Shown here one piece after another: positions 1 to 62,847 of a stretch of 64,000 bases of DNA. Each line of letters starts with the position of its first letter. Position 1 is the first letter of the stretch. This DNA is from Pedosphaera sp. (GTDB lineage: Bacteria; Verrucomicrobiota; Verrucomicrobiia; Limisphaerales; SIBH01), in the NCBI GenBank assembly GCA_031414955.1, contig JANOQV010000240.1, positions 1-64,000 on the forward strand, written 5' to 3'. Both the position numbers and the translations under genes were made by a program. The notes beneath the pieces are model-generated. The model saw nothing but the letters and a program-made list of their open reading frames with translations, did not search any database and was not told the DNA's origin.

Positions 1-81
1 TAAAGCGACCGCACTCCAAACGCTTCGCGCCAGTCGAGGCGTTCAGGGTTGCGTGCCAGCGTTTGGAATGCGGTCGCTTTA
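1..81. repeat. REP/MITE-like inverted-repeat doublet (GCACTCCAAA-type), left end probably cut by window edge
   Basis: 1-24 TAAAGCGACCGCACTCCAAACGCT is the reverse complement of 58-81 AGCGTTTGGAATGCGGTCGCTTTA with 1 mismatch. Confidence 0.8.
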
Positions 82-182
82 GCGCCGCTTTCTGCCGGAC
101 CAATCCGAGTCAAGAAGACAACCCCCAAGTGTTTTGCTGCCATCGGGGGAGCAAATCCACCTATCCTCCGTCCAACACAACT

Positions 183-1370: not shown

Positions 1371-1413
1371 ACTGAGCGCGGCCCGCCGAGTCCGCGTGTT
1401 GAAAATATTTCTT

Positions 1414-35711: not shown

Positions 35712-35714
35712 GCC

Positions 35715-43130: not shown

Positions 43131-43245
43131 AAGGCGGTCAGCCTAGACCAAGCCAGGGGGGCAAGACAAAAAAAATGTTGGCCGCAGTGAGTATCCACGT
43201 TCAGCTTGGTCACGGCTCCTTGGAAACCAGGGGGCCTCGGCTGAT

Positions 43246-45374: not shown

Positions 45375-45387
45375 GGGGCCAAGACCC

Positions 45388-46167
45388 TCAACGGTGCAGA
45401 AAGAAGGAGCACACGCTTTCCTCCTCGATGATGAAACCCAGGGCTTTGAACCGCTCCAGAAACTGCTCCTGCGACATCTGGCCGAGGGGATCATCGTGCA
45501 GTTCCAGCGCGATGGCGGAAACACTTTCCCAGGCGGCCGGAGGCGTGCCGCGCACGAGATCGAACTCCGCGCCCTCGATGTCGATCTTGGCCAGGGTAAT
45601 TTTCGACCCGAGCGCAGCGACCACGTCGCTAAAGGCGCGGATAGTCACGGGAAAAGATTTCCCCGTGGTTCCGTAGAGGCTCGAACCGCCCGGATTCTCC
45701 TCGTCAAAGAACCAGTTCACGGTGGCGTTGGCTCCGGCGACGGCCTCGCGGTGCAAATGAATTCGATCACCATGGGCCGGATTGGCCAGCCGGTTCATCT
45801 CGAAGAGCCGATAGTTGGGCGGACCGGGTTCATAGGCATGAACCTCCACTTCGGGACCCTGGGCCGCCGCCAGCAGGCTGAACAGTCCGATGTTCCCGCC
45901 CAAATCCAAAACGGTCGCCTTGCCCTGGGTTGCCCGGACATGCGCGAGCGCGCGCCCATAACTCCCGGCGAAGAGAAGTTCATGCACCACATCCCAGTCC
46001 CGGGAGCCGGCGCGGCAAACCACATTCAGACCATCGCGGAAAGAAAGGAGGCGCAGGCCGGCATGATGTTGACGCAACCGCATGCCCACCGCCGTGGGCC
46101 AGTTCTCGATCCGCCGGACGATGTCGAGGCACGTCTTGATTTTGTTGCGTTGATACTGCGCTGCCAT
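45388..46167 (-). CDS. FkbM family methyltransferase
   Basis: VLDLGGNIGLFS, AYEP, KIDIEGAE, ELH. Confidence 0.9.
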   Translation of the reverse strand: MAAQYQRNKIKTCLDIVRRIENWPTAVGMRLRQHHAGLRLLSFRDGLNVVCRAGSRDWDVVHELLFAGSYGRALAHVRATQGKATVLDLGGNIGLFSLLAAAQGPEVEVHAYEPGPPNYRLFEMNRLANPAHGDRIHLHREAVAGANATVNWFFDEENPGGSSLYGTTGKSFPVTIRAFSDVVAALGSKITLAKIDIEGAEFDLVRGTPPAAWESVSAIALELHDDPLGQMSQEQFLERFKALGFIIEEESVCSFFLHR

Positions 46168-46276
46168 TTGCGCGCATTAACGGCGAGGGTCCGGTCTTTG
46201 TCCAGCGCGTGAAGATGCAGGGTGAGATTGAAAGTGGCGGGCCACCACGGGCCGGGGCCGGGGAGGCTCTCGGGCC

Positions 46277-46385
46277 GGAGTGCGCCCGTCCCGGGCGCAG
46301 CCACGTCCGCGCGCACGATGCCTTGGGGAAAACCCCAGCCTCTCGCCACGCTTCACCTTGCTGCGCCCGAGGACGGGCGCACTCC
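46277..46385. repeat. GGAGTGCGCCCGTC-type REP doublet
   Basis: GGAGTGCGCCCGTCCCGGGCGCAGC (46277-46301) and inverted copy (46360-46385) with 1 indel; same family at 62732-62847. Confidence 0.85.
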
Positions 46386-46474
46386 AGGCCCGCCACGATC
46401 AATCCCACCCACGATGCAGTTGCTTTCAACTCTGGATTCCCCAAACTACGGGCGCGTCCTGTGTCGTGCCGAAA

Positions 46475-47623
46475 ATGAGAATTGCCCTGTGCCTGGAATA
46501 CCCGCTCGCGTACCAAGGCGGGGTCAGCGTGCTCTGCCAGGCTCTCGCCACCGGCCTTTCCGCCCGGCACGAAGTCGTGCTCGTCTCGCCGGACGGCCCG
46601 GAAGAATTTGCCCGGCTGCAAAAAATCCTCCCGCTGCACAGCCATGTGCCTTGGAATCCGAACACCGTCGGCCCGGGGCCATCGCGGACGCTCGCCACCG
46701 CTTTGAAAGAGCGGGGCGTGCAGTTGGCGCACTTCCACTTCGGCGGCAACTTTGGCTGGGGCAGCCGTTTTTCGGGTCAATCACCGATCCCTTATGTGGC
46801 GCGGGCTGGGATCAAAGCGGTCAGCACCGTGCATCTGGTGGTCGGCCCTCTGGATGGCTATTGCGGACCCGAGAAGCCGCTCTGGTTCAAGCTCGCGCTC
46901 TGGCCGGTGGCGTGGCTGGGCAAGATGAGCGTGCTGCGCCACCTGCGCGCCGAGCTCGTGGTGTCCAAGTTCGGCACGCGCTGCCTGCGCCGTTGGTACT
47001 GGCCCAGGCGTGACCGCTTCCGGACGATTTATCACTCCCGCGTCTCCGAGCAATCCACCCTTCCTCCTCCAGGTGGCAGGGAGAAGATGGTTCTTTATGC
47101 GGGCCACCTGGCGGTGCGCAAAGGACAGCACATCCTCGCCGAGGCGTTCGCGCAAGTTGCTCTCCGGCATCCCGACTGGAAGCTCGTGCTTCTGGGTGAA
47201 GGCGAGAAGGAGATCGAGGATCGCATCGGCCGCCTGATCGTCGAACATTCCCTCCAAGGCCGGATCGAGATGCCCGGTGCGCGCCTGGATGCGATGGAGT
47301 GGATGCGCCGGGCGGAAATCTTCGTCCAGCCTTCCTTCTTTGAAGGCCTGCCGCTGGCCTTGCAGGAAGCGATGTGGTCCGGCTGCGCCTGCCTCGCCAC
47401 GGACATTCCCGGCAACAACGAAATCATTTCCCACGAGATGAATGGCTTGCTGGTCAGCAAGGGCGATCCTGATTCCATGGCGGCGGGATTGGACCGTCTG
47501 ATGGGCGACAAGACCTTGCGCGCCACGTTCCGCGAGCAGGCGCGCGCTTCCGTCTTGCGCCAGGGAATGAGTGTGGAGCAAATGATCCGTCAGCATGTTG
47601 AACTCTATGAGTCCTGCGTTTGA
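46475..47623 (+). CDS. Glycosyltransferase family 4
   Basis: GGV, RKGQ..L.EAF, PSFFEGLPLALQEAM. Confidence 0.92.
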   Translation: MRIALCLEYPLAYQGGVSVLCQALATGLSARHEVVLVSPDGPEEFARLQKILPLHSHVPWNPNTVGPGPSRTLATALKERGVQLAHFHFGGNFGWGSRFSGQSPIPYVARAGIKAVSTVHLVVGPLDGYCGPEKPLWFKLALWPVAWLGKMSVLRHLRAELVVSKFGTRCLRRWYWPRRDRFRTIYHSRVSEQSTLPPPGGREKMVLYAGHLAVRKGQHILAEAFAQVALRHPDWKLVLLGEGEKEIEDRIGRLIVEHSLQGRIEMPGARLDAMEWMRRAEIFVQPSFFEGLPLALQEAMWSGCACLATDIPGNNEIISHEMNGLLVSKGDPDSMAAGLDRLMGDKTLRATFREQARASVLRQGMSVEQMIRQHVELYESCV

Positions 47624-48824
47624 GTCCGTGGATGGCCGGCGGTTTGCCGTGGCGGGCATCGCCCGTTGGGACGGCGACTACAACGCCCGCGCCCTGGCGG
47701 CCCACGACCTGTTGCGCTTTTGCGCGCTGGGCACCCGGCGCGGCACCGCCGGGGTGCCGATGGAACTGACCCGGCTCAATCCCAAGATTGGCCTGGTCGC
47801 TTACCTCGGTGCGCGGACCCTGCCGCCCTTCTACGGCGAGGCTCTGCGCCATCGACTGCACCCGTGGCTCGACCGCTGGGTGGATTCAATGATGACGCCG
47901 GGCGATCACATTCTTTCGAGCTTCGGCTTCACCAACCGGGCTTTCGCCCGCACGCGGTCGCAGGGCGGCAAAACTTTTTATTCCGCGGGCAGCTCCCACC
48001 CGGAAGACTACTGGGCCATCGTGGAAGAGGAGCACAAGCGCTGGCAGTGCCCTTACCCGCCGCTGGCGCAATTCCAACACCGTCGCGTGATGGAGATGAT
48101 GCCGCTGGTGGATTACGTCCTGTCGCCCAGTTCATTCGTCACGCGCTCCTACCTCGCGCACGGGTTTCGCCCCGAGCAGATCCTGCGCAATGTCTATCCC
48201 ATCGATCTTTCCTGCTTCACCCCGCCCACGGTCCCACGCCCGAAGAACCGGCCGCTCTCGGTGGTCTCGACCGGCTGCCTGACTTTCCGGAAAGGCACGC
48301 CTTACCTGCTGGATGCCTTCCGACTCGTGCTGAAAAAAATTCCCAACGCCCGGCTTCTGCTCACGCGGGACATCCTGAGCGGCATTGCGCCGGTCCTCGC
48401 CCGTTACAACGATCTCCCCATCGACTGGGCACCGGCCCTGCCGCATCCACAACTGGCCGAGCGCCTGCGCCATGCAGACATCTTTGCGCTGCCCTCGGTG
48501 GAAGATGGATTCGCGCGCACCGTGACCGAGGCGCTGGCTTGCGGCCTGCCCGTCATCGTGACCCCGAACACCGGCGCGTCCGACCTGGTGCGCCCCGGGG
48601 TGAATGGAGAGATCGTTCCCATCCGAGACCCGGTGGCCTTGGCCGAGGCGATCCTGAAGTGGGCGGATCGGATACTTGGCCCGGATGAAACCGCCCGGCC
48701 CGAGTTCGATCTCAGCCTGGTCTCCGCCGCGAGCTTCGAGCGCGGATTCCTCGAACAACTGGCCACCTTGGGTTTGGTGCGTCGGGCAAAAGCGGATGTC
48801 GCCTCCGCCCCCGACCCTTGCTAG
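47595..48824 (+). CDS. Glycosyltransferase family 4
   Basis: RKGTPYLLDAF, LPSVEDGFARTVTEALACGLPVI. Confidence 0.92.
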   Translation: MLNSMSPAFESVDGRRFAVAGIARWDGDYNARALAAHDLLRFCALGTRRGTAGVPMELTRLNPKIGLVAYLGARTLPPFYGEALRHRLHPWLDRWVDSMMTPGDHILSSFGFTNRAFARTRSQGGKTFYSAGSSHPEDYWAIVEEEHKRWQCPYPPLAQFQHRRVMEMMPLVDYVLSPSSFVTRSYLAHGFRPEQILRNVYPIDLSCFTPPTVPRPKNRPLSVVSTGCLTFRKGTPYLLDAFRLVLKKIPNARLLLTRDILSGIAPVLARYNDLPIDWAPALPHPQLAERLRHADIFALPSVEDGFARTVTEALACGLPVIVTPNTGASDLVRPGVNGEIVPIRDPVALAEAILKWADRILGPDETARPEFDLSLVSAASFERGFLEQLATLGLVRRAKADVASAPDPC

Positions 48825-48849
48825 CCTGCGCCTTGGAACAACTGATTTC

Positions 48850-49620
48850 ATGAGCCAATCCAATCTCAGCAAAGTCGCGCGGCTGGCCGGACGCCTGATC
48901 AAGATTGCCCTCCGCAATCCCCGCGCGCTGCGCGAAGTCTTCGGCGTGTCGCTGGCCCTCTCCGAACAGCTCACCGACCCGGAGGTGGACGTGACCGTGC
49001 TGCCCAAAGTGGCGGTGGAAGACATCCTCGGCGACACCAGCGGGGATCATGTCCTCGCCCTGTGGGCCGTGCCCCAAGTGGCCCGCTCGGTCAGTCTCCA
49101 CGAAGCGGTGTGCCTCGGTACCTTGATGAAACTGGCCCAGGCGCGGCGGGTCTTTGAGTTCGGCACCTATCGCGGCGTCTCGACCACTCAACTGGCTTTG
49201 AACCTTCCACCCGACGGACAGGTCTTCACCCTCGACCTGCCCGTCACCAATCTGAAAACCAAGTTTGAACTAGACACCACGGGCGAGGTGGAAGTCGTGG
49301 AGGACGCCCGCAAAGGCGAGCTGGTCCCGGCCCACCTCCGTCCGCGCATCACGTTTATCTCGCAGGACTCCGCGCTGTTTGATCCGACCCCGTTCGAGGG
49401 CACGATGGATCTCGTCTTCGTCGATGGCGCGCACACGGCGGAGTATGTGAAGAACGATTCGGAGAAGGGCTGGCGGATGTTGCGCCCCGGCGGAGTCATC
49501 TGCTGGCACGACTGCCGGTTCAACAGCGCCTCGGTGATCAAATTCCTGCGCCAATGCCGCTATCAACCCCGGCGGATCACCGGCGGCTCGGTCGCGTTTG
49601 CGGTGAAGCCCGGCGCGTGA
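48850..49620 (+). CDS. Class I SAM methyltransferase (Methyltransf_24-like)
   Basis: FEFGTYRG.ST, DLVFVDGAH, LRPGGVICWHD. Confidence 0.88.
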   Translation: MSQSNLSKVARLAGRLIKIALRNPRALREVFGVSLALSEQLTDPEVDVTVLPKVAVEDILGDTSGDHVLALWAVPQVARSVSLHEAVCLGTLMKLAQARRVFEFGTYRGVSTTQLALNLPPDGQVFTLDLPVTNLKTKFELDTTGEVEVVEDARKGELVPAHLRPRITFISQDSALFDPTPFEGTMDLVFVDGAHTAEYVKNDSEKGWRMLRPGGVICWHDCRFNSASVIKFLRQCRYQPRRITGGSVAFAVKPGA

Positions 49621-49630
49621 GGCGAGCTGC

Positions 49631-51187
49631 TCAACGCTTCAGCATGGAGCGAAGCACGGCCAGTTCGGAACCCAGTATTTTCCTGCTCATCCCGGCCAGG
49701 ACACCGGTGACGATCAGGAGCACGACGTAGGAAACCAGCAGGAGGCCGAGGTGCGAGAGGGATGATCCGGGCAGATAGAATTTCAGCACCCCGGCAGTCA
49801 GCACCACCGCCAGCGGCAGAAGCCAGCTCCGCGCCGACCATCGCGCCGCAGACAAGCCGAGATGCCGGCACGCGTACCAGCCCAGCCACAGGCTCAAGAT
49901 GGAGTGCGCGATCACGGTCGCCACGGCGACGCCCGTGATGGAACCAAGGCGCATGGAAACAATGGAAAGTAGGACGTTGATCAAGCCGGTGCAGATGATC
50001 ACCAGCCCGCTCACTTTGATCCCTTTGTCGCCGCAACGCGTGGCGAGTTGAATGCCCGTGTCGCCGCCGGTGGCCACGGCGAGGTTGCAGGCGAAGGCTA
50101 GTTGCCACGCCAGCGGACCCTGGCTGTCCGCGCCCAGCCAGAAGCGGATGAACAGATCGTTCAGTGCGAGAAAGACCAGCGCCGCGCCGGTGCCAAGCAT
50201 GATTTGAAACAGGTTCAGGCGACCGGCCTCCAGGAGCAGCCGCCGGCGATCCGCCTCTTCTTGGCTGGAAATCCATTGCGTGATTTTCGGCAGGCTCACG
50301 AAGCTGGCGGAAAGAATCAGGATGACGGCCAGTTCACAGGCTTTGTAGTTCGCCGTGTACATGGGAATGATTTCGGAACCGAACCCGGCTTTGAGCACCA
50401 GCCGGTCCGTGGTGTGGTAAATCACGCTGCCGAGAGTGCAGAGGTAAAGCCAGCCGCTCGTACGCGCCAGCATCCGCCACTGCGCGCGATCTATTTTCAG
50501 CGGCCACAGATCGCCCAGCCAAGGGTGCGACCATTTGAGCATCCGCCAGGCGAGCCAGCCGGACAAAATCGACGCGGCCAGGTAAGGCGTGGTTTGCAAC
50601 CACAGCGGCGCGCCCGTCCGCGCCAGCAGCCAGTGCAGCAGGGGTGCGAGCAACGAGCCTATGATCAGCGACGGCAGGATCGGCCAGGTCACCGTGCCGT
50701 GGGCGTAGTTCAAACTTTGGAAATAGCCGCCCAGGATCATGGCCGACGCGCTCGCCCCGCCCCAGAGGAAGAGCACAGTGTAGGAACCCGCGCCGGCCAC
50801 GTTCTCGAACTCCAGCCAGCCCGGCAGCCACGGCGAGAGCACGGCGAAGAGCACAAAAAGCGCCGCCGCCAGAAGCAGAAACAGGGTGCGCGCCGCCGCC
50901 AGCAAGGCGCGCAGTTCCTCGTGCTCGCCGCGACCCAGCAGGAGTCCGCCTTTGATCGAGATGACGCCGGTGATGCCCAGATCGCCCAGGCCGCCGAGCC
51001 GGGCCACGGATTGGAAGACGAGGAACAGGCCGAAGAGCGCGGCCCCCATCGAATCGAGGAACAGCCGGAAAAAAAGCAGCGACAGTAGCGCGCCCGCCGC
51101 CATGGCGGCGGCGCGCAACAGAAAGGCCAGCCGCACGGAGGTCCGATCCGGCAGGAGCAGGGCGCGCAGTTTCCCAGTGGCGCTCAT
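49631..51187 (-). CDS. Wzx-like polysaccharide flippase
   Basis: 12 or more TM helices, DLGI, TDRLVL, typical MOP-family size, glycan-locus context. Confidence 0.8.
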   Translation of the reverse strand: MSATGKLRALLLPDRTSVRLAFLLRAAAMAAGALLSLLFFRLFLDSMGAALFGLFLVFQSVARLGGLGDLGITGVISIKGGLLLGRGEHEELRALLAAARTLFLLLAAALFVLFAVLSPWLPGWLEFENVAGAGSYTVLFLWGGASASAMILGGYFQSLNYAHGTVTWPILPSLIIGSLLAPLLHWLLARTGAPLWLQTTPYLAASILSGWLAWRMLKWSHPWLGDLWPLKIDRAQWRMLARTSGWLYLCTLGSVIYHTTDRLVLKAGFGSEIIPMYTANYKACELAVILILSASFVSLPKITQWISSQEEADRRRLLLEAGRLNLFQIMLGTGAALVFLALNDLFIRFWLGADSQGPLAWQLAFACNLAVATGGDTGIQLATRCGDKGIKVSGLVIICTGLINVLLSIVSMRLGSITGVAVATVIAHSILSLWLGWYACRHLGLSAARWSARSWLLPLAVVLTAGVLKFYLPGSSLSHLGLLLVSYVVLLIVTGVLAGMSRKILGSELAVLRSMLKR

Positions 51188-51189
51188 CG

Positions 51190-51993
51190 TCACTGGCCGC
51201 GCCCGCGGATTTCGCGTACCCACTGTCGCAGATATCCAAGGAGTGGAAATTGCCACCGCTCATGCCACGCCGTCAGGCCAAGGTCGCTGACGAACCGCAG
51301 TTTTTCCCGAAACGTCTGCCGCCGTTTGCCCGGCAGCGTGTCCGAGAAGCGCGCTGCGTGAATGAGAAAGTGGGCGCAGGCGCGCGGCACGCCGAAAGCC
51401 CCGTTGCGCGCGGCCAATTTGCAAAACAACAGGCTGTCCGCGCAAATCGGCAGGGTGGGTTCGTACCCGCCGGAGCGCAGGAAAGCCTCGCGCGTGTAGG
51501 CCGCCACACTGGGCGGACCGAACTGCATGCCGAAGCGCATCACCACGTCCTGCATCTCCTCGGGCGTGAAGAATCGCCCCGTCCACTTGCCGATGGTGGT
51601 CCGGGTTTCGTCCCCGCGATGATAATGATAGCCGCAATAGACGTAAGCGCAGCGCTGCTCGCCCGCCGCCACCCCGCGCACGGTGGCGATGTAGTCCGGC
51701 TCCAGCGAGTCGCCCGCGAAGAGCGGTTTGAGCCAATCGGCCTGCGACTGGTAGTGCAGCCAGTTCCAGTGCTCGACGCGGCCCAGTTCCGACGGCGGCT
51801 GAATCTTCCGCGCGGCGATGCCCGCCGCCGCCAGCACCGTCAGCGCGTTGGAAATGTGTTCGTGGCCGGATGTGGAAAAATTGTCGCTGACGAGCACGGA
51901 GAAATGCTTGTCCGTCTGCGCGACCAGCGAGGTGATCGTTTTCCCGAACACGTCGGTGGCGTTGCGCACCGGGATGAGCACTTCGAGCGTCAT
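51190..51993 (-). CDS. Glycosyltransferase family 2
   Basis: VLIPVRN, VSDNFS, HWNW, AGD, GGY. Confidence 0.85.
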   Translation of the reverse strand: MTLEVLIPVRNATDVFGKTITSLVAQTDKHFSVLVSDNFSTSGHEHISNALTVLAAAGIAARKIQPPSELGRVEHWNWLHYQSQADWLKPLFAGDSLEPDYIATVRGVAAGEQRCAYVYCGYHYHRGDETRTTIGKWTGRFFTPEEMQDVVMRFGMQFGPPSVAAYTREAFLRSGGYEPTLPICADSLLFCKLAARNGAFGVPRACAHFLIHAARFSDTLPGKRRQTFREKLRFVSDLGLTAWHERWQFPLLGYLRQWVREIRGRGQ

Positions 51994-52763
51994 GTCGAAG
52001 CAGGAATCCGGGCGCCGCAGTAGGAGGTGGTTTTGAAAAACTCCAAATCTTCCGGAATCCCCAGCCCGTACATGCCGTCGTACTCGCGGCCCGTCTTCAT
52101 GGTCACGACGTTGGCACACTCGGCAATCAGTTGGTTATAGGTGGGTGCCACGTAGAACTCGTTGTTTACGCGCAGATTGGCCGCGATCATCGCCTCGGCG
52201 GCGCGCACGTAGTCGCGACCGGCGCGGAAATTGTAGATGCCCACGGTCGCCTCGTTGCTCACCACCTGCTTCTCGACCACCTCGCTCACGGTGCCGTCGG
52301 GCCGCATCCGGCAATAGGACCACTTGGGATGATCGGACCAGAAGGTCATGATCAACCCCGCCACCTCGGGTGCGTCGCCAGCGGCGAGGTAATCGTCGAT
52401 GTTCAAGTCTACGATTTGATCGCTGTTGGCGATCATGAGCGGGTCGGCGTTGTCGATGAGTCCCTTGGCGAGCAGGACCGTGCAGGCGGCGCCTTCCGTC
52501 ACGGTCCTGACCGGAATGATTTCACATCCAGGGCAGAGCCGGCGGATTTCAGCGGGCACTTCCGGATACAATTCGAGATGTTCGCCAAGACAGAGAAAGA
52601 TGAAGCGGTGCGCGCGCCGGGGACGGATGTTCTCGATGACCCATTGAATCATGGGCCGGCCGCCCACGGGAATCAGAGGCTTGGGCGTGGTGAAGCCGGC
52701 CTGGGCGAAACGCGAGCCGCGCCCGGCCATCGGCACCACAATTTGCAGGGTGTTCAGTATCAT
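51990..52763 (-). CDS. Nucleotidyltransferase (NTP_transferase, GT-A fold), copy 1
   Basis: PMAGRGSRF..PKPLI, TEGAACTVL, NSDQ, PKWSY, EK..SNEATVGIY, EFYVAPTYN. Confidence 0.88.
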   Translation of the reverse strand: MILNTLQIVVPMAGRGSRFAQAGFTTPKPLIPVGGRPMIQWVIENIRPRRAHRFIFLCLGEHLELYPEVPAEIRRLCPGCEIIPVRTVTEGAACTVLLAKGLIDNADPLMIANSDQIVDLNIDDYLAAGDAPEVAGLIMTFWSDHPKWSYCRMRPDGTVSEVVEKQVVSNEATVGIYNFRAGRDYVRAAEAMIAANLRVNNEFYVAPTYNQLIAECANVVTMKTGREYDGMYGLGIPEDLEFFKTTSYCGARIPAST

Positions 52764-52804
52764 TTTCTTGTACCTTCCCGCCTGAATGCCAAGTCAGGCA
52801 TTCA

Positions 52805-53494
52805 TCAAGATGAGGTTTGTTTCGCGAACCACATCCGCCGCAGCCCGCTACGGAACTGTTTAGAGTTCGTGACGGGCCAGTCGTAGGTGTGAAAGTCCCA
52901 GTTGCAACGCGCATCCGTGATTTGTGTGAAGGAGAATTTTTCTTCCTTGAGGACGCGCTCCAGAAAAGCAGGCGAAGGACGTGAGCCTTGCCCCACCAAG
53001 GATTGGTCGTATCTATACGCGTGTTCCTTCACGTTTACCACCAACTCTGGATCATCCGAGTCGGCGACCTCCGTCTCCAAGATCAAGTGCCGGCACCGTC
53101 GGCAGGCTGCACGCAACGCCGCTTCCGGATCGGGCAGATGGTAAAGGACTCCCATGTGAATGATGACATCGAACACTTCCTGACCGGGAAGGCCACTGCC
53201 CAGATCGTGCTGAATCGCTTTGAGGAAGGGATAGCGATTTCGAATCACCCGCACATTGGACATGCGACCTTCCAGGCAGGTCACGTCGGCTCCGAGGGCG
53301 GAGAGGGTGGCTCCAATCGCACCAAAGGCTGCCCCCACTTCCAGGACGGTCTTACCGTCGAAGAACCGGTGACCGTAGTGATCGAGCGTCGCCAAGATTC
53401 GTCGGGCCCGCCAGACGGAATAATGGCCTTCGAACTTCTGCTCGCCCAGTTGGCCGAGTTTCCACTGCAAATATGTTTTGATTCCTAAACCCAT
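52805..53494 (-). CDS. Class I SAM methyltransferase
   Basis: VLEVGAAFG, LEGR, FDVIIHMGVLYHL. Confidence 0.88.
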   Translation of the reverse strand: MGLGIKTYLQWKLGQLGEQKFEGHYSVWRARRILATLDHYGHRFFDGKTVLEVGAAFGAIGATLSALGADVTCLEGRMSNVRVIRNRYPFLKAIQHDLGSGLPGQEVFDVIIHMGVLYHLPDPEAALRAACRRCRHLILETEVADSDDPELVVNVKEHAYRYDQSLVGQGSRPSPAFLERVLKEEKFSFTQITDARCNWDFHTYDWPVTNSKQFRSGLRRMWFAKQTSS

Positions 53495-53692
53495 AGTGTC
53501 TTGGTTGGTTCGCCCGCTTGATTGAATCCGCACTCGGCGCGCGGAACGCAAGCATGGGGTGAAATGTTTTGGATGACCTTCTGCAATTCCATCCACTCCC
53601 CCTTCCGCAGGGTCGCCGGCCGGCCAGTCCGGGTAGGCTGCCAGTGCCACCCATTTGTCCTGAGAATGCTGATCCCGCTAGTCATGGGATGT

Positions 53693-54643
53693 TCAATCGG
53701 TTCTCCGCATCCAAAAGGAGGCCGGACGGGTCGAGCCTTGCGGCAACAACCGGTTGAGCGCCGCGCGATGATCGATGGAGAGGTAGTAGACCGGCAGAAT
53801 CACTTCCAGCGCGCGGCTGTGGGTCAGGAGACATTCGAGGGCGTATTGCTCGTTGAACGGGCGCAGATGATCGAGCAGCCACTCGCTGGGGTAATCGTAC
53901 GGAGTGAAGATGTCATGGACATGCACGAAGACGCCGGGCTTAAGGCTGGGAATGATTTCCAGCAGTTCATAGACGCAGTCGCTCTGCGCCTTGACGATAT
54001 GCGTGGTATCGATGAAGAGCACGTCGTTAGCTTCGAGGCTGGTGAACTCGGCCAGCGGGACGTCCTGGATTTTCTTTTCGATGAAGCGGCCGGGCGGCGG
54101 ATTGCGACGGATGGACTCGGAAGGATAAGGCTCGATGAAAACACAGTCGCAGGGATGCTGCTCGGCGGCGTTTTTCCGGCAGGCTGCGGCCGCCACGCGC
54201 GAACTGTTTCCGCATCCCACCTCGATCAATTTCCGCGGCTTCAAGGACCGCAGCATCGAGTAGTAAGTGATCGCGTCGAAATCCTCGAAGCCTCCGTTGT
54301 GCAGCCAGAACTCCGCGCCGGGAGCCGGCTCCACCGGCGTGCCGGCAAACTCCCGGGCAAACGGCTCCAGCCGGGTCAGCCACTCCGAGAACACCTCCTG
54401 GCGAAGCAGAATGCCGGGCAGATTCCGCCGCTGGCGCAGCTTCGCCACGTCCACGTCGAAGCGCGTTGGGCTGGCGGATTCAAAACGATACGGCTCGACG
54501 TGGTAACCAAGGTCGTCTTGCACGCGGGGCTGCTGCCAGTAGCTCTTCAGGATTTGCCGGACGAGCGGCTTTGGTAGAACCCGAACCAGGCGGTTGGCCA
54601 ACTGCCGGCCATGCAGGCGGAATGCATCCGAAAGATTGCTCAT
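53693..54643 (-). CDS. Class I SAM methyltransferase (Methyltransf_24-like)
   Basis: IEVGCGNSS, IEPYP, LFIDTTH, VHVHDIF.PYDYP, NEQY. Confidence 0.88.
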   Translation of the reverse strand: MSNLSDAFRLHGRQLANRLVRVLPKPLVRQILKSYWQQPRVQDDLGYHVEPYRFESASPTRFDVDVAKLRQRRNLPGILLRQEVFSEWLTRLEPFAREFAGTPVEPAPGAEFWLHNGGFEDFDAITYYSMLRSLKPRKLIEVGCGNSSRVAAAACRKNAAEQHPCDCVFIEPYPSESIRRNPPPGRFIEKKIQDVPLAEFTSLEANDVLFIDTTHIVKAQSDCVYELLEIIPSLKPGVFVHVHDIFTPYDYPSEWLLDHLRPFNEQYALECLLTHSRALEVILPVYYLSIDHRAALNRLLPQGSTRPASFWMRRTD

Positions 54644-56061: not shown

Positions 56062-56814
56062 TCACGCGGGCGAGTGACCAGCCGTGTGACCGGCGAATTC
56101 CTTGAGGAACAGCTCGTAATCCTCCGGCGTGCCGAGGCTGTGCATCGTGCCTTCCGGCAGGTGGTGCGTGGTGACGGTTTTGCCGTCGAGAATCAACTCG
56201 TTGTAAACCGGGCAGACGAAGAACTGCCCGCTGGTGCTGAGTCCTTTCAAAATCATCTTCTCCGCTGCCGCCATCAAATCACCAGCCCGGCGGAAGTAAT
56301 AAAGTCCCGCCGTGGCCTGCTTGCTGATCGGGCGCTTCTCGGCGACGGCGGTGACCCGTCCGCGCTCGTCCGTCTTCGCGAATGACCAGCGCGGGTGGGT
56401 GGCGGTGAAAGTGAGTATGCAGCCGTCGATGTCCGGCTTCCGGCAGGCTGCGTAGAATCCGGCCAGGCCGGCATCAATGACCTGGTCACCGTTGGCCACC
56501 AGCACTTCATCCTCGAGTGCGATCTGATCCATCGCCAGCAGCACCGAACAGAGGGCGCCGGCGGTCTCGTTCTCCAGGGCGAGCACGCGCGAGTCCGGTG
56601 CGATGAGCCGCAGCATGTCGCCGAGGTAGAACTGGGTGACCTGTTCCTTGCGGCAGACGAAGGTAAAGCGGGCGGGCGCTGGCGGCGCGAGGTTTTTCAA
56701 CACCAGCTCAACCATCGACTGATTGCCGATCTCGAGCAGCGGTTTGGGGAAAGTGTAGCCGCGCTCCTGGAAGCGCGTCGCTTTGCCGGCCATGGGAATG
56801 ATGACTTGCAGCAT
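56062..56814 (-). CDS. Nucleotidyltransferase (NTP_transferase, GT-A fold), copy 2
   Basis: PMAGKATRF..PKPLL, TAGALCSVL, NGDQ, PRWSF, EKRPISKQATAGLY, FFVCPVYN. Confidence 0.88.
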   Translation of the reverse strand: MLQVIIPMAGKATRFQERGYTFPKPLLEIGNQSMVELVLKNLAPPAPARFTFVCRKEQVTQFYLGDMLRLIAPDSRVLALENETAGALCSVLLAMDQIALEDEVLVANGDQVIDAGLAGFYAACRKPDIDGCILTFTATHPRWSFAKTDERGRVTAVAEKRPISKQATAGLYYFRRAGDLMAAAEKMILKGLSTSGQFFVCPVYNELILDGKTVTTHHLPEGTMHSLGTPEDYELFLKEFAGHTAGHSPA

Positions 56815-56818
56815 AGCG

Positions 56819-57439
56819 TTATCCGGCGCTTTCAATCGCGCGCCGCACGCGCGCGTAATCCACTTCGCCAAAACCGCTGACCTGGCAGACCAGCGCGCCG
56901 CTTTGCCGCGCGGCCTCCAGCCCGTGCGGCGCGTCCTCCACGATGATGGCCTCCGACGGTTTCACACCCAGCAATTCGCAGGCGCGCAGATACATCTCCG
57001 GATGCGGCTTGGCGTTCTTCACGTCCTCGTTGCTGAGGAGAAGATCAAACAAGTCGATGATGCCGCTGCCGCGCAGCATCAACTCGACGCTGTCACGGAT
57101 GGAGTTGGAACAGACGGCCAGCTTGAAGCCATCGCGCTTGAGCTGGTGGATCATGAACTCCTTCTCGAAAACCGGCGTGCAGCGGCGCAGGATTTCCTCG
57201 CGCGTGTACTTCTGTTTGATCTTGTTGACCAATGAATGCAGCCCACGCGGAAAGCCTTTCTCCACGGAAAGCATCTCCAGCTTCTGGCGCGTGGGCAGCC
57301 CGTTGTAGGTCGTGAGGTGCTCGTAGCGCGAAATGGTGTAGCCGAACAGGCCGAGCGCGCGGTTCAGCGCCTCGTAGTGCCATTCGGTGGCATCCACCAG
57401 CACTCCGTCGAGGTCGAAGAGAACGGCTTTAATCCTCAT
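56819..57439 (-). CDS. HAD-superfamily phosphatase/mutase
   Basis: FDLDGVL, CSNS, KPHPE, VEDAPHG. Confidence 0.92.
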   Translation of the reverse strand: MRIKAVLFDLDGVLVDATEWHYEALNRALGLFGYTISRYEHLTTYNGLPTRQKLEMLSVEKGFPRGLHSLVNKIKQKYTREEILRRCTPVFEKEFMIHQLKRDGFKLAVCSNSIRDSVELMLRGSGIIDLFDLLLSNEDVKNAKPHPEMYLRACELLGVKPSEAIIVEDAPHGLEAARQSGALVCQVSGFGEVDYARVRRAIESAG

Positions 57440-57801
57440 CGCTTGCCTGAGGTCGGCGCGGCCCCGGCGGCTGGGTCGCAAAGATATTTGTCGCCCTTCA
57501 CACACGGCAGCTTCACCACCACGGTCGTGACTTCGGTCACGGCCTCGAAGTCCGCCGCAGTGCCGGGAGGGATGCGGATAATCTCTCCCGCGTGCAAATC
57601 CTCGCCGTTCATGCGCGCGAGGCCGGACACAATCAGGGTGAGTTCCGTAGCCACGCGGTGAACGTGCTTCGGCTCGTGCGTTCCCGCCTGGTAGCGTTGC
57701 ACCGCTACTTCGGCGGCGTCGGTCGGTATCAACGTGGGGGAAAAGTTCCCCACGAACCAGCCTCGCGTGAAGTCATCCAGCTTGTGTCGTTCCAGCGGCA
57801 T
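57436..57801 (-). CDS. Small cupin-fold protein
   Basis: GWFVGNF.P, H.PKHVH...TE...IVSG, GEII.IPPG. Confidence 0.75.
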   Translation of the reverse strand: MPLERHKLDDFTRGWFVGNFSPTLIPTDAAEVAVQRYQAGTHEPKHVHRVATELTLIVSGLARMNGEDLHAGEIIRIPPGTAADFEAVTEVTTVVVKLPCVKGDKYLCDPAAGAAPTSGKR

Positions 57802-57808
57802 CTTGTTT

Positions 57809-58495
57809 TCAACCAAAAAATTCCCGTGCTTCGAGGGCGTAATCTGTGCAAAGCCCGTCGATGTGCCAATGCTTAAAATCCGCCCAGCGCTTTTTAGTGG
57901 TGGCACGGTCGAAGCCGTGAATCTCCGGCGAGATGATGTAAAAGAGCCGGCCGGCCGCCTGCACGGCGCGGACCTCGCGCTCGGTCAGCCAGAGCGAATC
58001 GAATTCATCGGCCCAGACGATCTCCGCCGGGATGCCGAGGCACTGCGTCAGGGTTTCCCCGCGATCGCTGAGCCGCGAGGCCAGCCTTACGGAGGCACCT
58101 CCAGGCAGCCTCCGGATTTTTTCCTGGGCCGCGCCCGGGGCCTCCGGCTCCAGCAGCTCGAAATCGAAATAAAAGCCGCGTTCACCCAGACGACGGTCCT
58201 GGGCCAGCCGGAATAGCTCGGCCTCGTAGCCCAGTTCCTTCGCGTTAATGGCCAGTTCCGCGTTGGGGAATTTGGCAAACAAGGCGCTGAAGTGCTCCAG
58301 GCAGTTGGCCGGCGTTCGGGGCACGGCATCATGGCTGATATAGAACCGGCCGGCCGGATCGCGGCGCAAATCCGTCTCCAACCCGAAGCCCGCCTCCAAA
58401 GCGGCGGCGCACGCGGCCAAGGAATTCTCCTCCACGGACTTTGGCCCGGTCAGGTTGGCCCGATGGGCCATGATGGTGATGGTGCAGCGGCGCAC
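57809..58495 (-). CDS. PLC-like / glycerophosphodiester-phosphodiesterase-like protein
   Basis: AHRAN, ENSL, ETDLR, ISHD, INAK, SPEIHG, GLCTDY. Confidence 0.75.
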   Translation of the reverse strand: MRRCTITIMAHRANLTGPKSVEENSLAACAAALEAGFGLETDLRRDPAGRFYISHDAVPRTPANCLEHFSALFAKFPNAELAINAKELGYEAELFRLAQDRRLGERGFYFDFELLEPEAPGAAQEKIRRLPGGASVRLASRLSDRGETLTQCLGIPAEIVWADEFDSLWLTEREVRAVQAAGRLFYIISPEIHGFDRATTKKRWADFKHWHIDGLCTDYALEAREFFG

Positions 58496-58511: not shown

Positions 58512-58712
58512 TCAGAAGAGCGTGTAAATAAAGGGCGCGGCGGCCGTCGAGCCGAGAATAATCAGCACGCCGAAAGCCAGTAGGATCAGCACCAGCGGGA
58601 GGAGCCAGTACTTCTTGTTTTCCTTCAGCATGGCCAGGAACTCGCGCAGCAGGCCCGGGTCCTTCTCCTCGCCGGAGGCCTCGAAGGCCGTTTGCTTCTT
58701 CTCGTCTTGCAT
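58512..58712 (-). CDS. DUF5989 / SxtK-like single-TM micropeptide
   Basis: EF..ML.ENKKYWLLP, TM helix, C-terminal APFIYTLF. Confidence 0.85.
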   Translation of the reverse strand: MQDEKKQTAFEASGEEKDPGLLREFLAMLKENKKYWLLPLVLILLAFGVLIILGSTAAAPFIYTLF

Positions 58713-58723
58713 GGATTTCAGAA

Positions 58724-59161
58724 TCAAAACTGGCGGTAATAGCGCTTGGGATCAATCCCCTTCTCCGCGTCCCGCCAGTAGGTCGGCGTAGAGCGGTCGA
58801 ACTTCCGGCGCAGCGGATCGCGTCCGGCCAGGCGCATGACGAGGCCCATCGGCGTCAGCAGCAGGTAATAAAACGCGGCGAAGAGGACGTTGCCCAGCAC
58901 GATACCGACGCAGCAACCGAAGAAATACCAGACGGCGTAGAAGGGCCGGGCAATTTGCGGAACCAGCCAGAGCACCACGCCGACGGCCAGGCCGATCACG
59001 CCGAGCCAGAGGAAGAAGGGCTTCCAGCTTCCCGCCGTCAGGCGTGCGACGGTTCCCATGATCAGGGCGATGACCGGGAAGCCGATGACGAGGCTGAGGG
59101 CGAATTTCTTCCGCTCGGCCCGGCCGGGGTTCCAGTTGACGTCTTTGAAGGGGTTGAGCAT
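58724..59161 (-). CDS. SxtJ family membrane protein
   Basis: KKFALSL, TM helices, YYLLLTPMGL.MR..GRDPL, TYW, C-terminal RYYRQF. Confidence 0.85.
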   Translation of the reverse strand: MLNPFKDVNWNPGRAERKKFALSLVIGFPVIALIMGTVARLTAGSWKPFFLWLGVIGLAVGVVLWLVPQIARPFYAVWYFFGCCVGIVLGNVLFAAFYYLLLTPMGLVMRLAGRDPLRRKFDRSTPTYWRDAEKGIDPKRYYRQF

Positions 59162-59166
59162 GGGGA

Positions 59167-61014
59167 TCAGTCGAGGGAAAAGCTGCCCAGATATTTTTCG
59201 CGCTCGGCGGCGCTTTGGGGCGGCTGCTCGGTCTTGTAGAGCAGGCAGTTCTCGAGCACGAGCACGTCCATGTCCGAGGCCAGGAAGCAGCGATAGGCGT
59301 CCTGCGGCGTGCAGACAATCGGCTCGCCGCGGATGTTGAAGCTGGTGTTGATGATCACGCCGCAGCCGGTCTGTCGCTTGAACTCGCGAATCAGCCGGTA
59401 GTAGCGCCCGTTGCGTTTCTCATCCACGGACTGCACGCGCGCGGACATATCGACGTGCGTGATGGCGGGCAGCTCCGAGCGCTTCACATTGACGCGCTTG
59501 CGCAGATCGGGATCGCGCATGGCGGCCTGCTGTTCGGCGGTGAGCGCGCAAAGCTTCTCCTTTCGCACCGGGGCCACGAGCAGCATGTAAGGCGACTCGC
59601 GATCCAACTCGAAGTTCTCCGCCACGTCTTCGGCCAGCACGCTGGGGGCGAAGGGACGAAAGCTTTCGCGGAACTTGATGCGCAGGTTCATCTGCGACTG
59701 CATCTTCTCGCTGCGTGAATCCCCGATGATGCTGCGCGCCCCGAGAGCGCGCGGTCCGAACTCCATGCGGTCCTGGAACCAGCCCACGACCTTCTCCTCG
59801 CGCATGGCCTCGACGGTCCGGCGCAGCAACTCTTCCTCGTTCGCGTGGAAGTGGTACTTCACTTTCTGCGCATCGAGGAACTGGCGGATCTCTTCGTTCG
59901 AGAACTTTGGCCCGAGCAGCGAGGCCCGCATCAACGAGTCCGAGCCATTGGGCTTCCGCTCATTTTCCAGCAAATGAAAGTGGACAAACATGGCCGCACC
60001 CAAAGCGCCGCCAGCGTCGCCGGCCGGGGGCGGAATCCAGATGTCCTCGAAAATCTTCTCGCGCAGAAGGACGCCATTGGCCACGCAGTTCAGGGCCACA
60101 CCGCCGGCCAGGCACAGGTATTTGGAGCCAGTAAGTTTCTTGGCCGTGCGCGCCATGCGGAGCACGGCTTCCTCGGTCACTTTCTGGATCGACGCCGCCA
60201 GATCCATCTCACGTTGCGTGATGTTCGATTCGGCGCCGCGCGGTGGGCCGCCGAAGAGCTGGTCGAACTCGGGACTGGTCATGGTCAGACCCTGGCAGTA
60301 GTTGAAATACCGCATGTCCATGGCCATGGAGCCGTCGGGCTTCAGGTCGATGAGATGGTTCAGAATCAGATCGACATACTTCGGCTCGCCGTAGGGCGCG
60401 AGCCCCATGAGTTTGTATTCCCCTGAGTTGACACGGAAGCCGGTGAAGTAGGTGAAGGCGGAATAGAGCAGCCCCAGCGAATGTGGGAAGCTCATCGTCT
60501 TGAGCATCTGGAGCTTATTGCCCTGGCCGTGCCCGATGCTGGCCGTGTCCCACTCGCCCACGCCGTCCAGGGTGAGGACGGCCGCGTCGTCGAAGGGCGA
60601 GGGAAAGAAGGCGCTGGCCGCGTGCGACTCGTGGTGGCCGGTGAAGACGATGCGCTTCTTGTAGCGTCCGCCGAGAGATTTCCGGATCTCCTTGGGCAGA
60701 TGCAGCTTGGTCTTCAGCCACAAGGGCATGGCCATGAGGAACGACGGCAGGCCTTGCGGCGCGAAGGCGAGGTAGGTTTCCAGCAACCGCTCGAACTTGA
60801 GCAACGGCTTGTCGTAGAAAACCACGTAATCCAAATCCTCGGGCTGGAGGCCCGCCTCGCGCAGACAGTAATCAACCGCGTGCTTGGGAAAATTGTGATC
60901 GTGCTTCTTACGAGTGAACCGCTCTTCCTGCGCCGCCGCCACGAGCCGGCCCTCCACCATCAACGCCGCCGCGCTGTCGTGGTAGTAAGCAGAAACACCC
61001 AGGATTTTGGACAC
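59167..61014 (-). CDS. O-carbamoyltransferase (CmcH/NodU/TobZ family, SxtI-like)
   Basis: YHDSAA, EERFTRKKHD, HHESHAASAF, DGVGE, GEYKLMGLAPYG, GGVALNC, EFGPRALG.RS, KFRESFRPFAP, NTSFN.RGEP; GTG start. Confidence 0.96.
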   Translation of the reverse strand: MSKILGVSAYYHDSAAALMVEGRLVAAAQEERFTRKKHDHNFPKHAVDYCLREAGLQPEDLDYVVFYDKPLLKFERLLETYLAFAPQGLPSFLMAMPLWLKTKLHLPKEIRKSLGGRYKKRIVFTGHHESHAASAFFPSPFDDAAVLTLDGVGEWDTASIGHGQGNKLQMLKTMSFPHSLGLLYSAFTYFTGFRVNSGEYKLMGLAPYGEPKYVDLILNHLIDLKPDGSMAMDMRYFNYCQGLTMTSPEFDQLFGGPPRGAESNITQREMDLAASIQKVTEEAVLRMARTAKKLTGSKYLCLAGGVALNCVANGVLLREKIFEDIWIPPPAGDAGGALGAAMFVHFHLLENERKPNGSDSLMRASLLGPKFSNEEIRQFLDAQKVKYHFHANEEELLRRTVEAMREEKVVGWFQDRMEFGPRALGARSIIGDSRSEKMQSQMNLRIKFRESFRPFAPSVLAEDVAENFELDRESPYMLLVAPVRKEKLCALTAEQQAAMRDPDLRKRVNVKRSELPAITHVDMSARVQSVDEKRNGRYYRLIREFKRQTGCGVIINTSFNIRGEPIVCTPQDAYRCFLASDMDVLVLENCLLYKTEQPPQSAAEREKYLGSFSLD

Positions 61015-61041
61015 GCGGAAAACGTAGGGTGAAATTCAGCC

Positions 61042-62388
61042 TCAAGGCAACTGTACGCTCGCGCGAGGCGGAGGGTAAAAGGCGCCCGCGATGGCTTCCG
61101 CGGCCAGGCGATGCCCCGCTTCCGAGAAATGGCCGGAACCATTCGAGAGGTAAAGCGTGCGAATCTGTTCGGTCGTCAACTGCCGCCGCTTCATTTCATC
61201 GCCCAGGGCCAGGAGCGGCAGGCGACGGCGACTGGCCCACAAAGCGAGTTGCCTTTCGGGAGCAAGAAAGTCGTATGCGCCCAACTGTCCGTTCCAGTTC
61301 GTGCCCTTGGTCGCGTAAAAGTCCTGGGGGAAAAAGGGCACCGTGACCAGGCGAAGGCTGATGGCGTTGCTTTCGGCGAAGTGCGCGGCCCGGTCCAGCA
61401 AGGCTTCCATGATTTCCAAGCCTTCGCGCGCCGCCGGAGAAGGCTGCCGGGCGAACGGCTCGGCTTTCAACCCCAGCCGTGATGTTTGGGCTTCAAACCC
61501 GGCGTGGTGCGTGAGGTCCGCCGCCAGTTTTCTGCGCAAGGCCAGGGTGTTGCGGACGCTGATCGGCACCTGGGCCAGCAGGCAATGGCTCACCGCCAGG
61601 CGGGGCAGGAACAACCCGGACGGCCGGTGCGAAAAGTCGATCGTCTGCGCATATCGGAACCGGCTCGCTTCTCCGGTCGCGTCCAGTTGCAATTCGCCCG
61701 CCGCGCCGGGCGTGTAGTAAATGAACGAGGCGGGATCGTGGAACTGCAGGCGCGGCGAGCAGTCCGTGATGTCATTCCCCAGATACAGAACCAGGATGGC
61801 CTCCTGCACGGCGAAACGGCGGTGCGCGTATCGAAGCACTTCCAAATAATGAGCGGGGCCGGTGCCATGGTTGCCCAGTCCCAGCACGGTCCGGGAAACC
61901 TCCTGCGCGCCCAGCTTCCCGCCCAGCATGGCCGCCAGGTTGCGCGTGCGATGCACCTCGACCGCCTCGACAAAACTATCCCCAATCACCGCCGTGCGGT
62001 TGGTGCGGCTGAGATCGAACTCGGGAAAGTACCAGCCCTGGCGATTGCGAATGGAATTACCCAGACCCTCAGCGGTCCAATAGACCCGACCCCAAGGCAG
62101 GCGCTCCTTGGTGTTCACGGCGGGCAGGATTCCCAGCCAGGCGCTGGCCTGGAGCAACACCTCCACCAGTCCGCAGCCACACACCACCACAAACAGCTTT
62201 ACCAGGGTGGCGGGCCGGCCCCACCCGCCGACCGCTGCCGCCGCCAAGCCGGCGGCGATAAAGGCCCAGAAGCTTTTTCCCTCCCAGGCCCGGAGCCCCA
62301 GCGCGTGCAACTCCAGCGCCAGCACCGCGCCGAGGAGCGCGAACCCCAGCCCCATGGTCCAAAAGAATCGGCGAATAAATCGTTCCAT
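61042..62388 (-). CDS. Membrane-anchored SGNH-family protein
   Basis: About three N-terminal TM helices; block I IGDSF, block II GNHGTG, block III LGND, block V SGHFS. Confidence 0.8.
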   Translation of the reverse strand: MERFIRRFFWTMGLGFALLGAVLALELHALGLRAWEGKSFWAFIAAGLAAAAVGGWGRPATLVKLFVVVCGCGLVEVLLQASAWLGILPAVNTKERLPWGRVYWTAEGLGNSIRNRQGWYFPEFDLSRTNRTAVIGDSFVEAVEVHRTRNLAAMLGGKLGAQEVSRTVLGLGNHGTGPAHYLEVLRYAHRRFAVQEAILVLYLGNDITDCSPRLQFHDPASFIYYTPGAAGELQLDATGEASRFRYAQTIDFSHRPSGLFLPRLAVSHCLLAQVPISVRNTLALRRKLAADLTHHAGFEAQTSRLGLKAEPFARQPSPAAREGLEIMEALLDRAAHFAESNAISLRLVTVPFFPQDFYATKGTNWNGQLGAYDFLAPERQLALWASRRRLPLLALGDEMKRRQLTTEQIRTLYLSNGSGHFSEAGHRLAAEAIAGAFYPPPRASVQLP

Positions 62389-62559
62389 GCCTGTGTGATG
62401 GCGAACCGTAGGGGGCGGGGCGAACCCAGCCAAGCGCGAACCCAATCATGGCCGTGGCGCTCGTTCCATCCAGGCCCAGTTCCGCGCCGACGCAAGGCGG
62501 CTCCAGCGTGGGCCAATCGTCTTAACGTCGAACCTCAGCTCGGCCCGTGGCCTGGCTCC

Positions 62560-62664
62560 GGCGCGCGAGTTTTCCACCCGCCGCGCGTGGCCGGGGCGGA
62601 AGTCGCCGGAACTATTTCGATCCTCGGCCTAAGCGGCTTGCGGCGGGTGGAAAACCCGCGCGCC
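62560..62664. repeat. REP-like doublet (CGCGGGTTTTCCACCCGC type)
   Basis: 25-bp inverted repeats 62560-62584 and 62640-62664, 1 mismatch. Confidence 0.8.
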
Positions 62665-62731
62665 GATGAGGGATGCGGCCCGCCCTTCCCGCCTCGGAAT
62701 TCGCGCTTGATGCACATGGCTGAAAATCAGG

Positions 62732-62847
62732 CGGACGGACTGCGCCCGTCTCGGGCGCAGAAACTTGAAAAGGTCGAAGGCGCTGGAAAAATCCACGCCG
62801 GCCGCGGTTCGTGCGTCGCTGCGCCCGAGACGGGCGCACTCCGTCCG
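62732..62847. repeat. GGAGTGCGCCCGTC-type REP doublet (second copy)
   Basis: 29-bp inverted repeats 62732-62760 and 62819-62847, 1 mismatch. Confidence 0.85.

Follow-up and report, generated by a model that had tools for sequence, protein, structure and literature searches.

We analysed 64,000 nucleotides of Pedosphaera sp. DNA (contig JANOQV010000240.1, positions 1 to 64,000; hereafter the window) and focused on four genes that encode an SGNH-like protein, a class III O-carbamoyltransferase (CT), an SxtJ-family membrane protein and a DUF5989 microprotein (Table 1). On balance, the comparisons described below favour, as the best reading, a tyrosine-shuttle relay that would transfer carbamoyl groups across the membrane without an MBOAT protein. 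A preliminary description of this DNA, made from its letters, had proposed such a relay and had described four co-oriented, tightly spaced genes; the gaps between them (27, 5 and 11 nt, in the order SGNH, CT, SxtJ, DUF5989), the coordinates, the Pfam matches and the SGNH fold bore out that arrangement. Five more genes follow the DUF5989 gene, with gaps of 16, 13, -4, -17 and 76 nt, and 607 nt separate the SGNH gene from a pectate lyase gene upstream. The nearest named relatives of the locus are Verrucomicrobiota.

Table 1. Coordinates of the putative carbamoyl relay genes and of neighbouring features in the window
Feature	Position (nt)	Strand	Remarks
SGNH-like membrane-anchored protein, proposed final transferase	61042-62388	minus	448 aa, three N-terminal helices then SGNH domain
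Class III (CmcH/NodU/TobZ-type) O-carbamoyltransferase (CT), SxtI-like subfamily	59167-61014	minus	615 aa, GTG start
SxtJ-family membrane protein, proposed membrane adaptor	58724-59161	minus	145 aa
DUF5989 (SxtK-like) microprotein	58512-58712	minus	66 aa
FIYTLF C-terminus of DUF5989, fits FXYXXF acyl-shuttle motif	58515-58532	minus	Tyr63 codon 58524-58526
GDPD-like protein, cupin, HAD phosphatase, nucleotidyltransferase	56062-58495	minus	downstream, co-oriented; putative precursor synthesis
Stand-alone AT3 acyltransferase, PF01757	54789-55985	minus	possible alternative partner of SGNH protein
Surface-glycan locus, candidate acceptor source	41616-54643		Wzy_C, five glycosyltransferases, methyltransferases, second nucleotidyltransferase, Wzx-like membrane protein

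The microprotein matched the DUF5989 family (PF19451; E 3.7e-19, 69 bits against a Pfam cut-off of 27). It consists of an amphipathic helix, a basic patch, one membrane helix, a 7-residue linker and the tail, and the KENKK patch, single helix and FIYTLF end named in the preliminary description were all confirmed. Residues W36, P39, P60, F61, Y63 and F66 were kept in 83/83 DUF5989 sequences, and the Phe, Tyr and Phe of the tail in 120/120 (the best 120 of 722 homologues). Because a homologue search itself favours the tail motif, we used 80 loci chosen by CT alone (the best 80 of at least 600) and a DUF5989 profile built without the last eight residues. The profile matched 73 of the 80 loci, and 72 copies were complete. 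All 72 carried Tyr at position -4 and Phe at -1 followed by the stop codon; of these, 69 also had Phe at -6 and 70 had Pro at -7. The Tyr, whose loss from DUF5989 would have spoken against a shuttle, was thus invariant.

As a control, we examined MBOAT proteins of the phylum. The F-x-Y-x-x-F end was found in 29 of 30, with Pro at -7 in 23; a basic patch precedes the last helix in both DUF5989 and MBOATs, and the median distance from the last helix to the Tyr is 7 residues in each. The two kinds of C-terminus therefore share the same motif, register and basic patch. Among the 4,991 called genes of this genome, only two end in F-x-Y-x-x-F-stop, namely the DUF5989 gene and an MBOAT gene on contig C126. 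The latter is the sole MBOAT of the genome and has its own tail, and the window holds none, in agreement with the earlier claim. Lys or Arg was present on the N side of the DUF5989 helix in 114/114 sequences and on the C side in 2/114. By the charge rule, this pattern fits a tail that faces outside in the free peptide; a cytoplasmic C-terminus had been named as a result that would count against the relay. The DltX model was absent among the 25 families listed for 83 DUF5989 members (E ≤ 10), a comparison in which short membrane peptides are hard to link. The peptide had no PDB match, and our search found no literature on DUF5989.

We then asked which genes accompany the peptide. The locus scan was seeded by CT because the SxtJ alignment is too variable. 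SxtJ was found at 78/80 CT-selected loci and DUF5989 at 73/80, and both at 0/13 loci of CTs from other subfamilies; these and the following linkage counts overstate the number of separate cases because kin are not independent. In 120 genomes of the phylum, DUF5989 was present in 23/23 genomes with a CT of this subfamily (at least 250 bits) and in 0/6 with only other CTs; two further DUF5989 genomes had a partial CT only, or none. The order of the three genes varies, and one family has the peptide apart from CT-SxtJ. MBOAT was not seen in 6 of 14 DUF5989 genomes (97-99% complete), and CT was found in all 14. The expected co-occurrence of DUF5989, SxtJ and CT was thus borne out, with DUF5989 following the CT subfamily and not MBOATs.

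These counts bear on an alternative in which DUF5989 is a real DltX-like shuttle, but the peptide or the SGNH protein is paired with a donor of acetyl groups, either AT3 or an MBOAT acting in trans, and the CT modifies the same glycan independently. An MBOAT lies about 1 kb from the trio of CT, SxtJ and DUF5989 genes in 3/80 loci, orphan DUF5989 copies are known, the gene run in the window includes an AT3 gene overlooked in the preliminary description, and in another genome (G371) the SGNH orthologue shares a locus with an MBOAT. However, 29/30 MBOATs have their own tail, which makes a separate peptide superfluous; MBOAT was not seen in the six DUF5989 genomes mentioned above; the AT3 gene has no homologue in 120 trio loci; and in the fusions found the tail is linked to SxtJ and not to an MBOAT. 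We regard an acetyl donor as quite improbable.

After the trio members themselves, SGNH clusters were the commonest neighbours. An SGNH gene was found within 1.5 kb in 32/80 loci (33 by a looser rule) against 1/13 control CTs, a contrast that benefits from SGNH profiles seeded from the same loci. The counts were 23/52 for loci with 3 kb on both sides and 21/40 for DUF5989-selected loci; the background in this genome is 12/3,946 genes. In a Pfam check, 28 of the 31 tested SGNH neighbours matched GDSL or AlgX at E ≤ 0.01. A second Pfam check, covering 117 of 131 listed references plus four extra, looked at 65 genes next to SGNH-negative loci and 48 next to control loci and found no SGNH match in either set. 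The SGNH-positive loci span eleven phylum labels. The neighbours formed 27 clusters at 30% identity; a hydrophobic anchor precedes block I in 55/56, and 52 have the block I Ser.

The SGNH protein itself matched Lipase_GDSL_2 weakly (E 0.0018, below the Pfam cut-off) and had no useful PDB sequence match. Its AlphaFold2 model, with a predicted local distance difference test score (pLDDT) of 95.6, showed the architecture given in Table 1. The best fold match was CgnD (Z 19.3, root-mean-square deviation 3.2, 227 aligned), followed by a match at Z 16.1; PatB scored Z 14.5. The fold and the presence of blocks I (Ser), II (Gly), III (Asn) and V (His) supported the earlier assignment of an SGNH protein beside the peptide. 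The catalytic codons are Ser138 (61975-61977) and His420 (61129-61131), and G136, D137, S138 and H420 were invariant in 68/68 aligned relatives. A complex prediction for SGNH residues 58-440 (68-row alignment) and DUF5989 (83 rows), with controls not folded, scored 0.10 and 0.18, where the mark was 0.32, a neutral result. A search of 401 genomes of the class found one SGNH orthologue, too few for a reverse linkage count. In a Pedosphaera record, the SGNH orthologue adjoins DUF5989 (consecutive accessions), and genome G353, from the same genus, has the arrangement CT-SxtJ-SGNH-DUF5989, in which the genes overlap and a Wzy_C gene comes next.

The match to CgnD suggests another possible reading, in which the tail itself would be the end product: the core of a ribosomal peptide, first carbamoylated and afterwards released by the SGNH protein. 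CgnD cuts the peptide core in the crocagin pathway (PMC10070186, in part), and the crocagin cluster combines an SGNH peptidase with a carbamoyltransferase and a C-terminal core. CgnD is, unlike the protein in the window, a soluble peptidase acting on a ribosomal precursor, and its identity to the SGNH protein is 11-15%. DUF5989 carries a membrane helix, and its tail is constant from phylum to phylum; it is not the soluble leader-core precursor of a ribosomally made and then modified peptide (RiPP) accompanied by CgnB/C/E-type genes, and no such oxidative tailoring genes recur beside the trio. The crocagin system has no SxtJ/SxtK counterparts; an equation of cgnJ/cgnK with sxtJ/sxtK was rejected, as CgnJ and CgnK are not SxtJ/SxtK-like. 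A peptide product is therefore very improbable.

To characterize the proposed donor, we compared the CT with known enzymes. It matched PF02543 (E 2.3e-101) and PF16861 (E 1.9e-71), both above the Pfam cut-off, as well as GdmN and TobZ, with Kae1-like and YrdC-like domains. As in GdmN, the general-base His12 and the metal ligands His127, His131, Asp150 and Asp333 are kept. The CT missed the cut-off of the NodU equivalog NF041651 (127 bits against 1000). The acceptor pocket was mapped from GdmN (PMC9633730, in part) onto 117 subfamily members with an average identity of 59%, and the hydrophobic stretch 89-104 was added to it by our own choice. Pocket segments were 82% conserved in these CTs against 66% elsewhere in the proteins, and 45% against 47% in the 13 control CTs. 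Of the 49 hallmark residues of the subfamily, 21 lay in the pocket columns (73/615); the nominal p (7e-9) overstates the significance, because the stretch 89-104 was added and columns are not independent. A near-invariant pocket across phyla and unrelated neighbourhoods points to a single, constant acceptor, and the invariant DUF5989 tail would be the obvious candidate for it.

SxtJ matched PF19588 (E 1.8e-10, 41.9 bits against a Pfam cut-off of 24.4). Its model (pLDDT 94.2) begins with two helices, continues with one of 44 residues that has a basic segment on either side, and ends in a basic C-terminal tail. Among 48,161 chains, no fold match above Z 6.0 was found for the model, whose part beyond about residue 82 was barely tested in this comparison. 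An Atlas search with SxtJ returned SxtJ clusters alone.

A fused form links SxtJ and the tail. At locus L110, a 188-aa protein ending in IYTLF lies between CT and SGNH, and no separate peptide is present. A pattern scan of metagenomes gave 102 matches, of which 7 belong to the same fused SxtJ-tail family; the other 95 were treated as chance (93 without a profile match, 2 with a distant SGNH alone). Where the DNA sufficed, CT was upstream of the fused gene in 6/6 cases and SGNH downstream in 5/5, in addition to L110. The family aligned to SxtJ (probability 97) and, with the tail included, to DUF5989 (67). In the Atlas, three clusters of 59-142 members lie near it, with DUF5989 in about one-tenth of the members of two. 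Judged from its sequence, the fused form ties the tail physically to SxtJ and places the peptide N-terminus on the side of the basic end of SxtJ. Three SxtJ-DUF5989 fusions (P0126, P0133 and P0141) were singletons on short contigs, may be assembly errors and were not used as proof.

The proposed relay rests on gene linkage, the identity and register of the tail, its predicted topology, and catalytic residues that are intact save for the block V Asp. In the first step, which is established for the family, the cytoplasmic CT would make carbamoyl-AMP from carbamoyl phosphate and ATP. SxtJ and the N-terminal DUF5989 helix might then keep the CT against the inner face of the membrane, so that its hydrophobic pocket segment (residues 67-104) sits in the bilayer; the short hydrophobic tail would dip inward, and Tyr63 would be O-carbamoylated. 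A Tyr-to-Ser relay is established for Dlt and PatAB; on the pattern of DltX and PatA, the tail could swing outward and pass the carbamoyl to Ser138 of the periplasmic SGNH protein, which would move it to an extracytoplasmic acceptor, here most likely the neighbouring Wzy-type glycan. CT, SxtJ and DUF5989 would form a fixed donor module, and diverse SGNH partners, which may be encoded elsewhere, would pick the acceptor. Active-site Ser residues can be carbamoylated by aryl carbamates; turnover of carbamoyl-Ser is slow, so that the final transfer step is no given. We put forward more tentatively, as something less than an even prospect, that this is a third loading route for tyrosine shuttles after MBOAT and AT3, in which a soluble cytoplasmic enzyme carbamoylates a membrane peptide through a bilayer thinned locally by SxtJ, and this peptide feeds interchangeable periplasmic SGNH transferases.

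We compared the module with known systems. The FXYXXF acyl-shuttle motif is defined at the C-terminus of DltX and MBOATs, and acetyl-Tyr has been found on PatA, whose synthetic hexapeptide donates through PatB; carbamoyl is never mentioned in the part of that source covered here (PMC12148441). DltX, which works with the MBOAT protein DltB and the SGNH protein DltD in the D-alanylation of teichoic acid (PMC12148441, in part), resembles DUF5989 in being a separate single-helix microprotein with an FXYXXF end, a predicted outside tail and an anchored SGNH partner. In contrast to Dlt, there is no MBOAT, carrier protein or adenylation enzyme here, the donor would be a soluble class III CT plus SxtJ, the group carried would be carbamoyl, and no sequence link to DltX was found. 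The PatA/PatB and AlgI-type systems share the ending P-F-I-Y-x-x-F-stop, equally spaced from the last helix, and an SGNH fold; their tail is fused to the MBOAT by which it is acetylated within a membrane funnel, whereas here it is free or fused to SxtJ, and the likeness is limited to the tail. As MBOAT is absent, the module, which on the best reading would work in the manner of a DltX/PatA shuttle, is not a member of the MBOAT-SGNH systems. No proposal of such a relay was found in the literature searched, which left most subscription papers outside its reach.

The gene set also resembles sxtI-sxtJ-sxtK-sxtL of saxitoxin clusters in content, order and sizes, as found at cyanobacterial loci (612, 134-137, 54 and 409-429 aa), although the window has no toxin cluster. 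SxtJ and SxtK have been described as SxtI helpers of unknown role and SxtL as a proposed decarbamoylase (PMC2684587, PMC2679770, PMC12300590 and bioRxiv 10.64898/2026.06.11.731795, each in part). We infer from size and position, not from alignment, that SxtK is DUF5989. TobZ, GdmN, NodU and WapO are, like the CT, two-domain enzymes with the same catalytic residues, but these stand-alone enzymes modify a variety of acceptors directly and lack SxtJ/DUF5989; the CT subfamily studied here differs from them in its fixed hydrophobic pocket and a conserved C-terminal Leu-Asp.

Several observations weigh against the predicted relay. The DUF5989 and MBOAT profiles aligned with a probability of 82 with the tail and 5.9 without it, so that the shared element is the tail alone. 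At locus L158 (8369-11463), a divergent CT with an SGNH gene upstream is accompanied by a 53-aa DUF5989-like open reading frame (ORF) without the tyrosine tail, and there is no SxtJ. No adjacent SGNH was found in 48/80 loci (29/52 with full flanks), and the seeding of the SGNH profiles favoured the CT-selected loci over the controls. Glycosyltransferase homologues lay near 10/80 and 2/40 loci against 4/13 controls and 4/199 genome tiles in an insensitive search; with so few of them, the surface-glycan reading is one for this locus and not for the family. Block V of the SGNH protein (Gly417-Ser418-Gly419-His420) does not have the usual triad Asp, which is present at two positions in 3/68 and 9/68 relatives; Asp373 (kept in 63/68) or Glu423 could stand in for it. 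The eight fused proteins have a shorter and weaker final helix (hydropathy of the best 19 residues 0.9-1.7, compared with a median of 2.8), a charged linker and Asn in place of Phe at -6, which makes the topology of the fused tails uncertain. In G371, the SGNH orthologue lies in a glycan locus orthologous to the one in the window (five genes share 50-59% identity). An MBOAT gene is 5 kb away from it, and the trio occupies a different glycan locus that has no SGNH gene; this arrangement fits action in trans, and equally an SGNH protein taking acetyl from the MBOAT tail. How a soluble cytoplasmic active site would reach a Tyr on the outer side is not explained by known structures. Of the relay as first proposed, the Tyr, the topology predicted for the free peptide, the SGNH linkage and the CT association thus stood, and SGNH adjacency (32/80) and a family-wide glycan link were the parts that fell short.

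The 48 loci with the trio alone are what would be expected if CT, SxtJ and DUF5989 formed a cytoplasmic complex, tethered to the membrane, whose acceptor is small or lipid-linked and is carbamoylated directly at the inner face, the tail serving for docking or as a structural plug. Any SGNH protein beside it would then remove carbamoyl or acetyl, the role suggested for SxtL and the one that Ape1 has next to PatAB. The SGNH folds closest to it are those of hydrolases, membrane crossing would be unnecessary, and a CT of a lipopolysaccharide-core cluster, the putative core CT WapO (PMC8005017, in part), can carbamoylate an envelope glycan. Such a complex leaves unexplained both the invariant Tyr in the exact MBOAT-tail register and an acceptor pocket that is near-invariant in phyla with unrelated gene surroundings; the WapO-like control CTs that neighbour WaaP-family kinases have no SxtJ/DUF5989, and the published sxt roles are predictions by their papers' own account. 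We therefore consider a purely cytoplasmic complex rather unlikely and prefer the tyrosine-shuttle relay.

Some individual loci deserve mention. Orphan second DUF5989 copies with an intact tail were found in two same-genus genomes (L315:9809-9961 and L317:8879-9031), with no CT, SxtJ or SGNH in the DNA fetched around them. A cyanobacterial locus (L111:6550-14907) has an MBOAT and an SGNH gene beside CT-SxtJ-DUF5989 and two more SGNH genes, so that both tail systems occur together. An SGNH-TPR fusion recurs as the partner in many Verrucomicrobiota (L031, L034, L036, L057, L059, L064, L068 and L070), and in four loci a TonB-dependent receptor precedes the CT. The control CTs at L159 and L160 have no trio; their neighbours are sulfotransferases and WaaP-family kinases, which recalls WapO of lipopolysaccharide-core clusters. 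Among plasmids, 47 records matched, 30 of them from Sinorhizobium. In S. meliloti Ak57 (L207:9811-11143), the trio adjoins an SGNH gene broken into two ORFs; the gene is whole in strain 1021, which makes the two strains a natural comparison pair.

The preliminary description had placed the four genes at the head of a Wzx/Wzy glycan locus. Wzy_C (41616-43130) was identified by Pfam; the supposed Wzx (49631-51187) had no Pfam match at E ≤ 1 and gave an 18%, non-significant alignment to a Polysacc_synt_3 Wzx-family protein of a syntenic locus, and is Wzx-like by position and hydrophobicity only. Two related nucleotidyltransferases (51990-52763 and the one downstream of DUF5989), with the HAD phosphatase, cupin and GDPD-like protein alongside, accompany the glycan locus and probably form a pathway for a phosphorylated substituent. 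The 607-nt gap contains REP-like inverted repeats (62559-62847; two pairs of 26-29 nt, 96-97% complementary), and promoter and terminator scans gave results at chance level. Elsewhere in the window, Pfam identified a Wadjet-type jetABCD set (30215-36866; JetA, DUF4194, SMC-like ATPase and JetD), preceded by an AAA_21 ATPase (28384-29625), and DUF4139 genes, three in tandem, at 63-4363.

The relay is directly testable, because S. meliloti 1021 carries the full four-gene set on pSymB. If it exists, the two widespread families SxtJ and DUF5989 would gain a function, many anchored SGNH proteins would be reassigned, and an overlooked class of carbamoylated envelope polymers would be predicted. On the more tentative reading of a third loading route, one donor module, found in at least eleven phyla and in this strain, would carbamoylate many envelope targets, and SxtL-type proteins would be transferases, not decarbamoylases. 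More generally, the tyrosine-shuttle principle would be widened from acyl to carbamoyl chemistry, and a group would be transferred across a membrane without a membrane-embedded catalytic enzyme.

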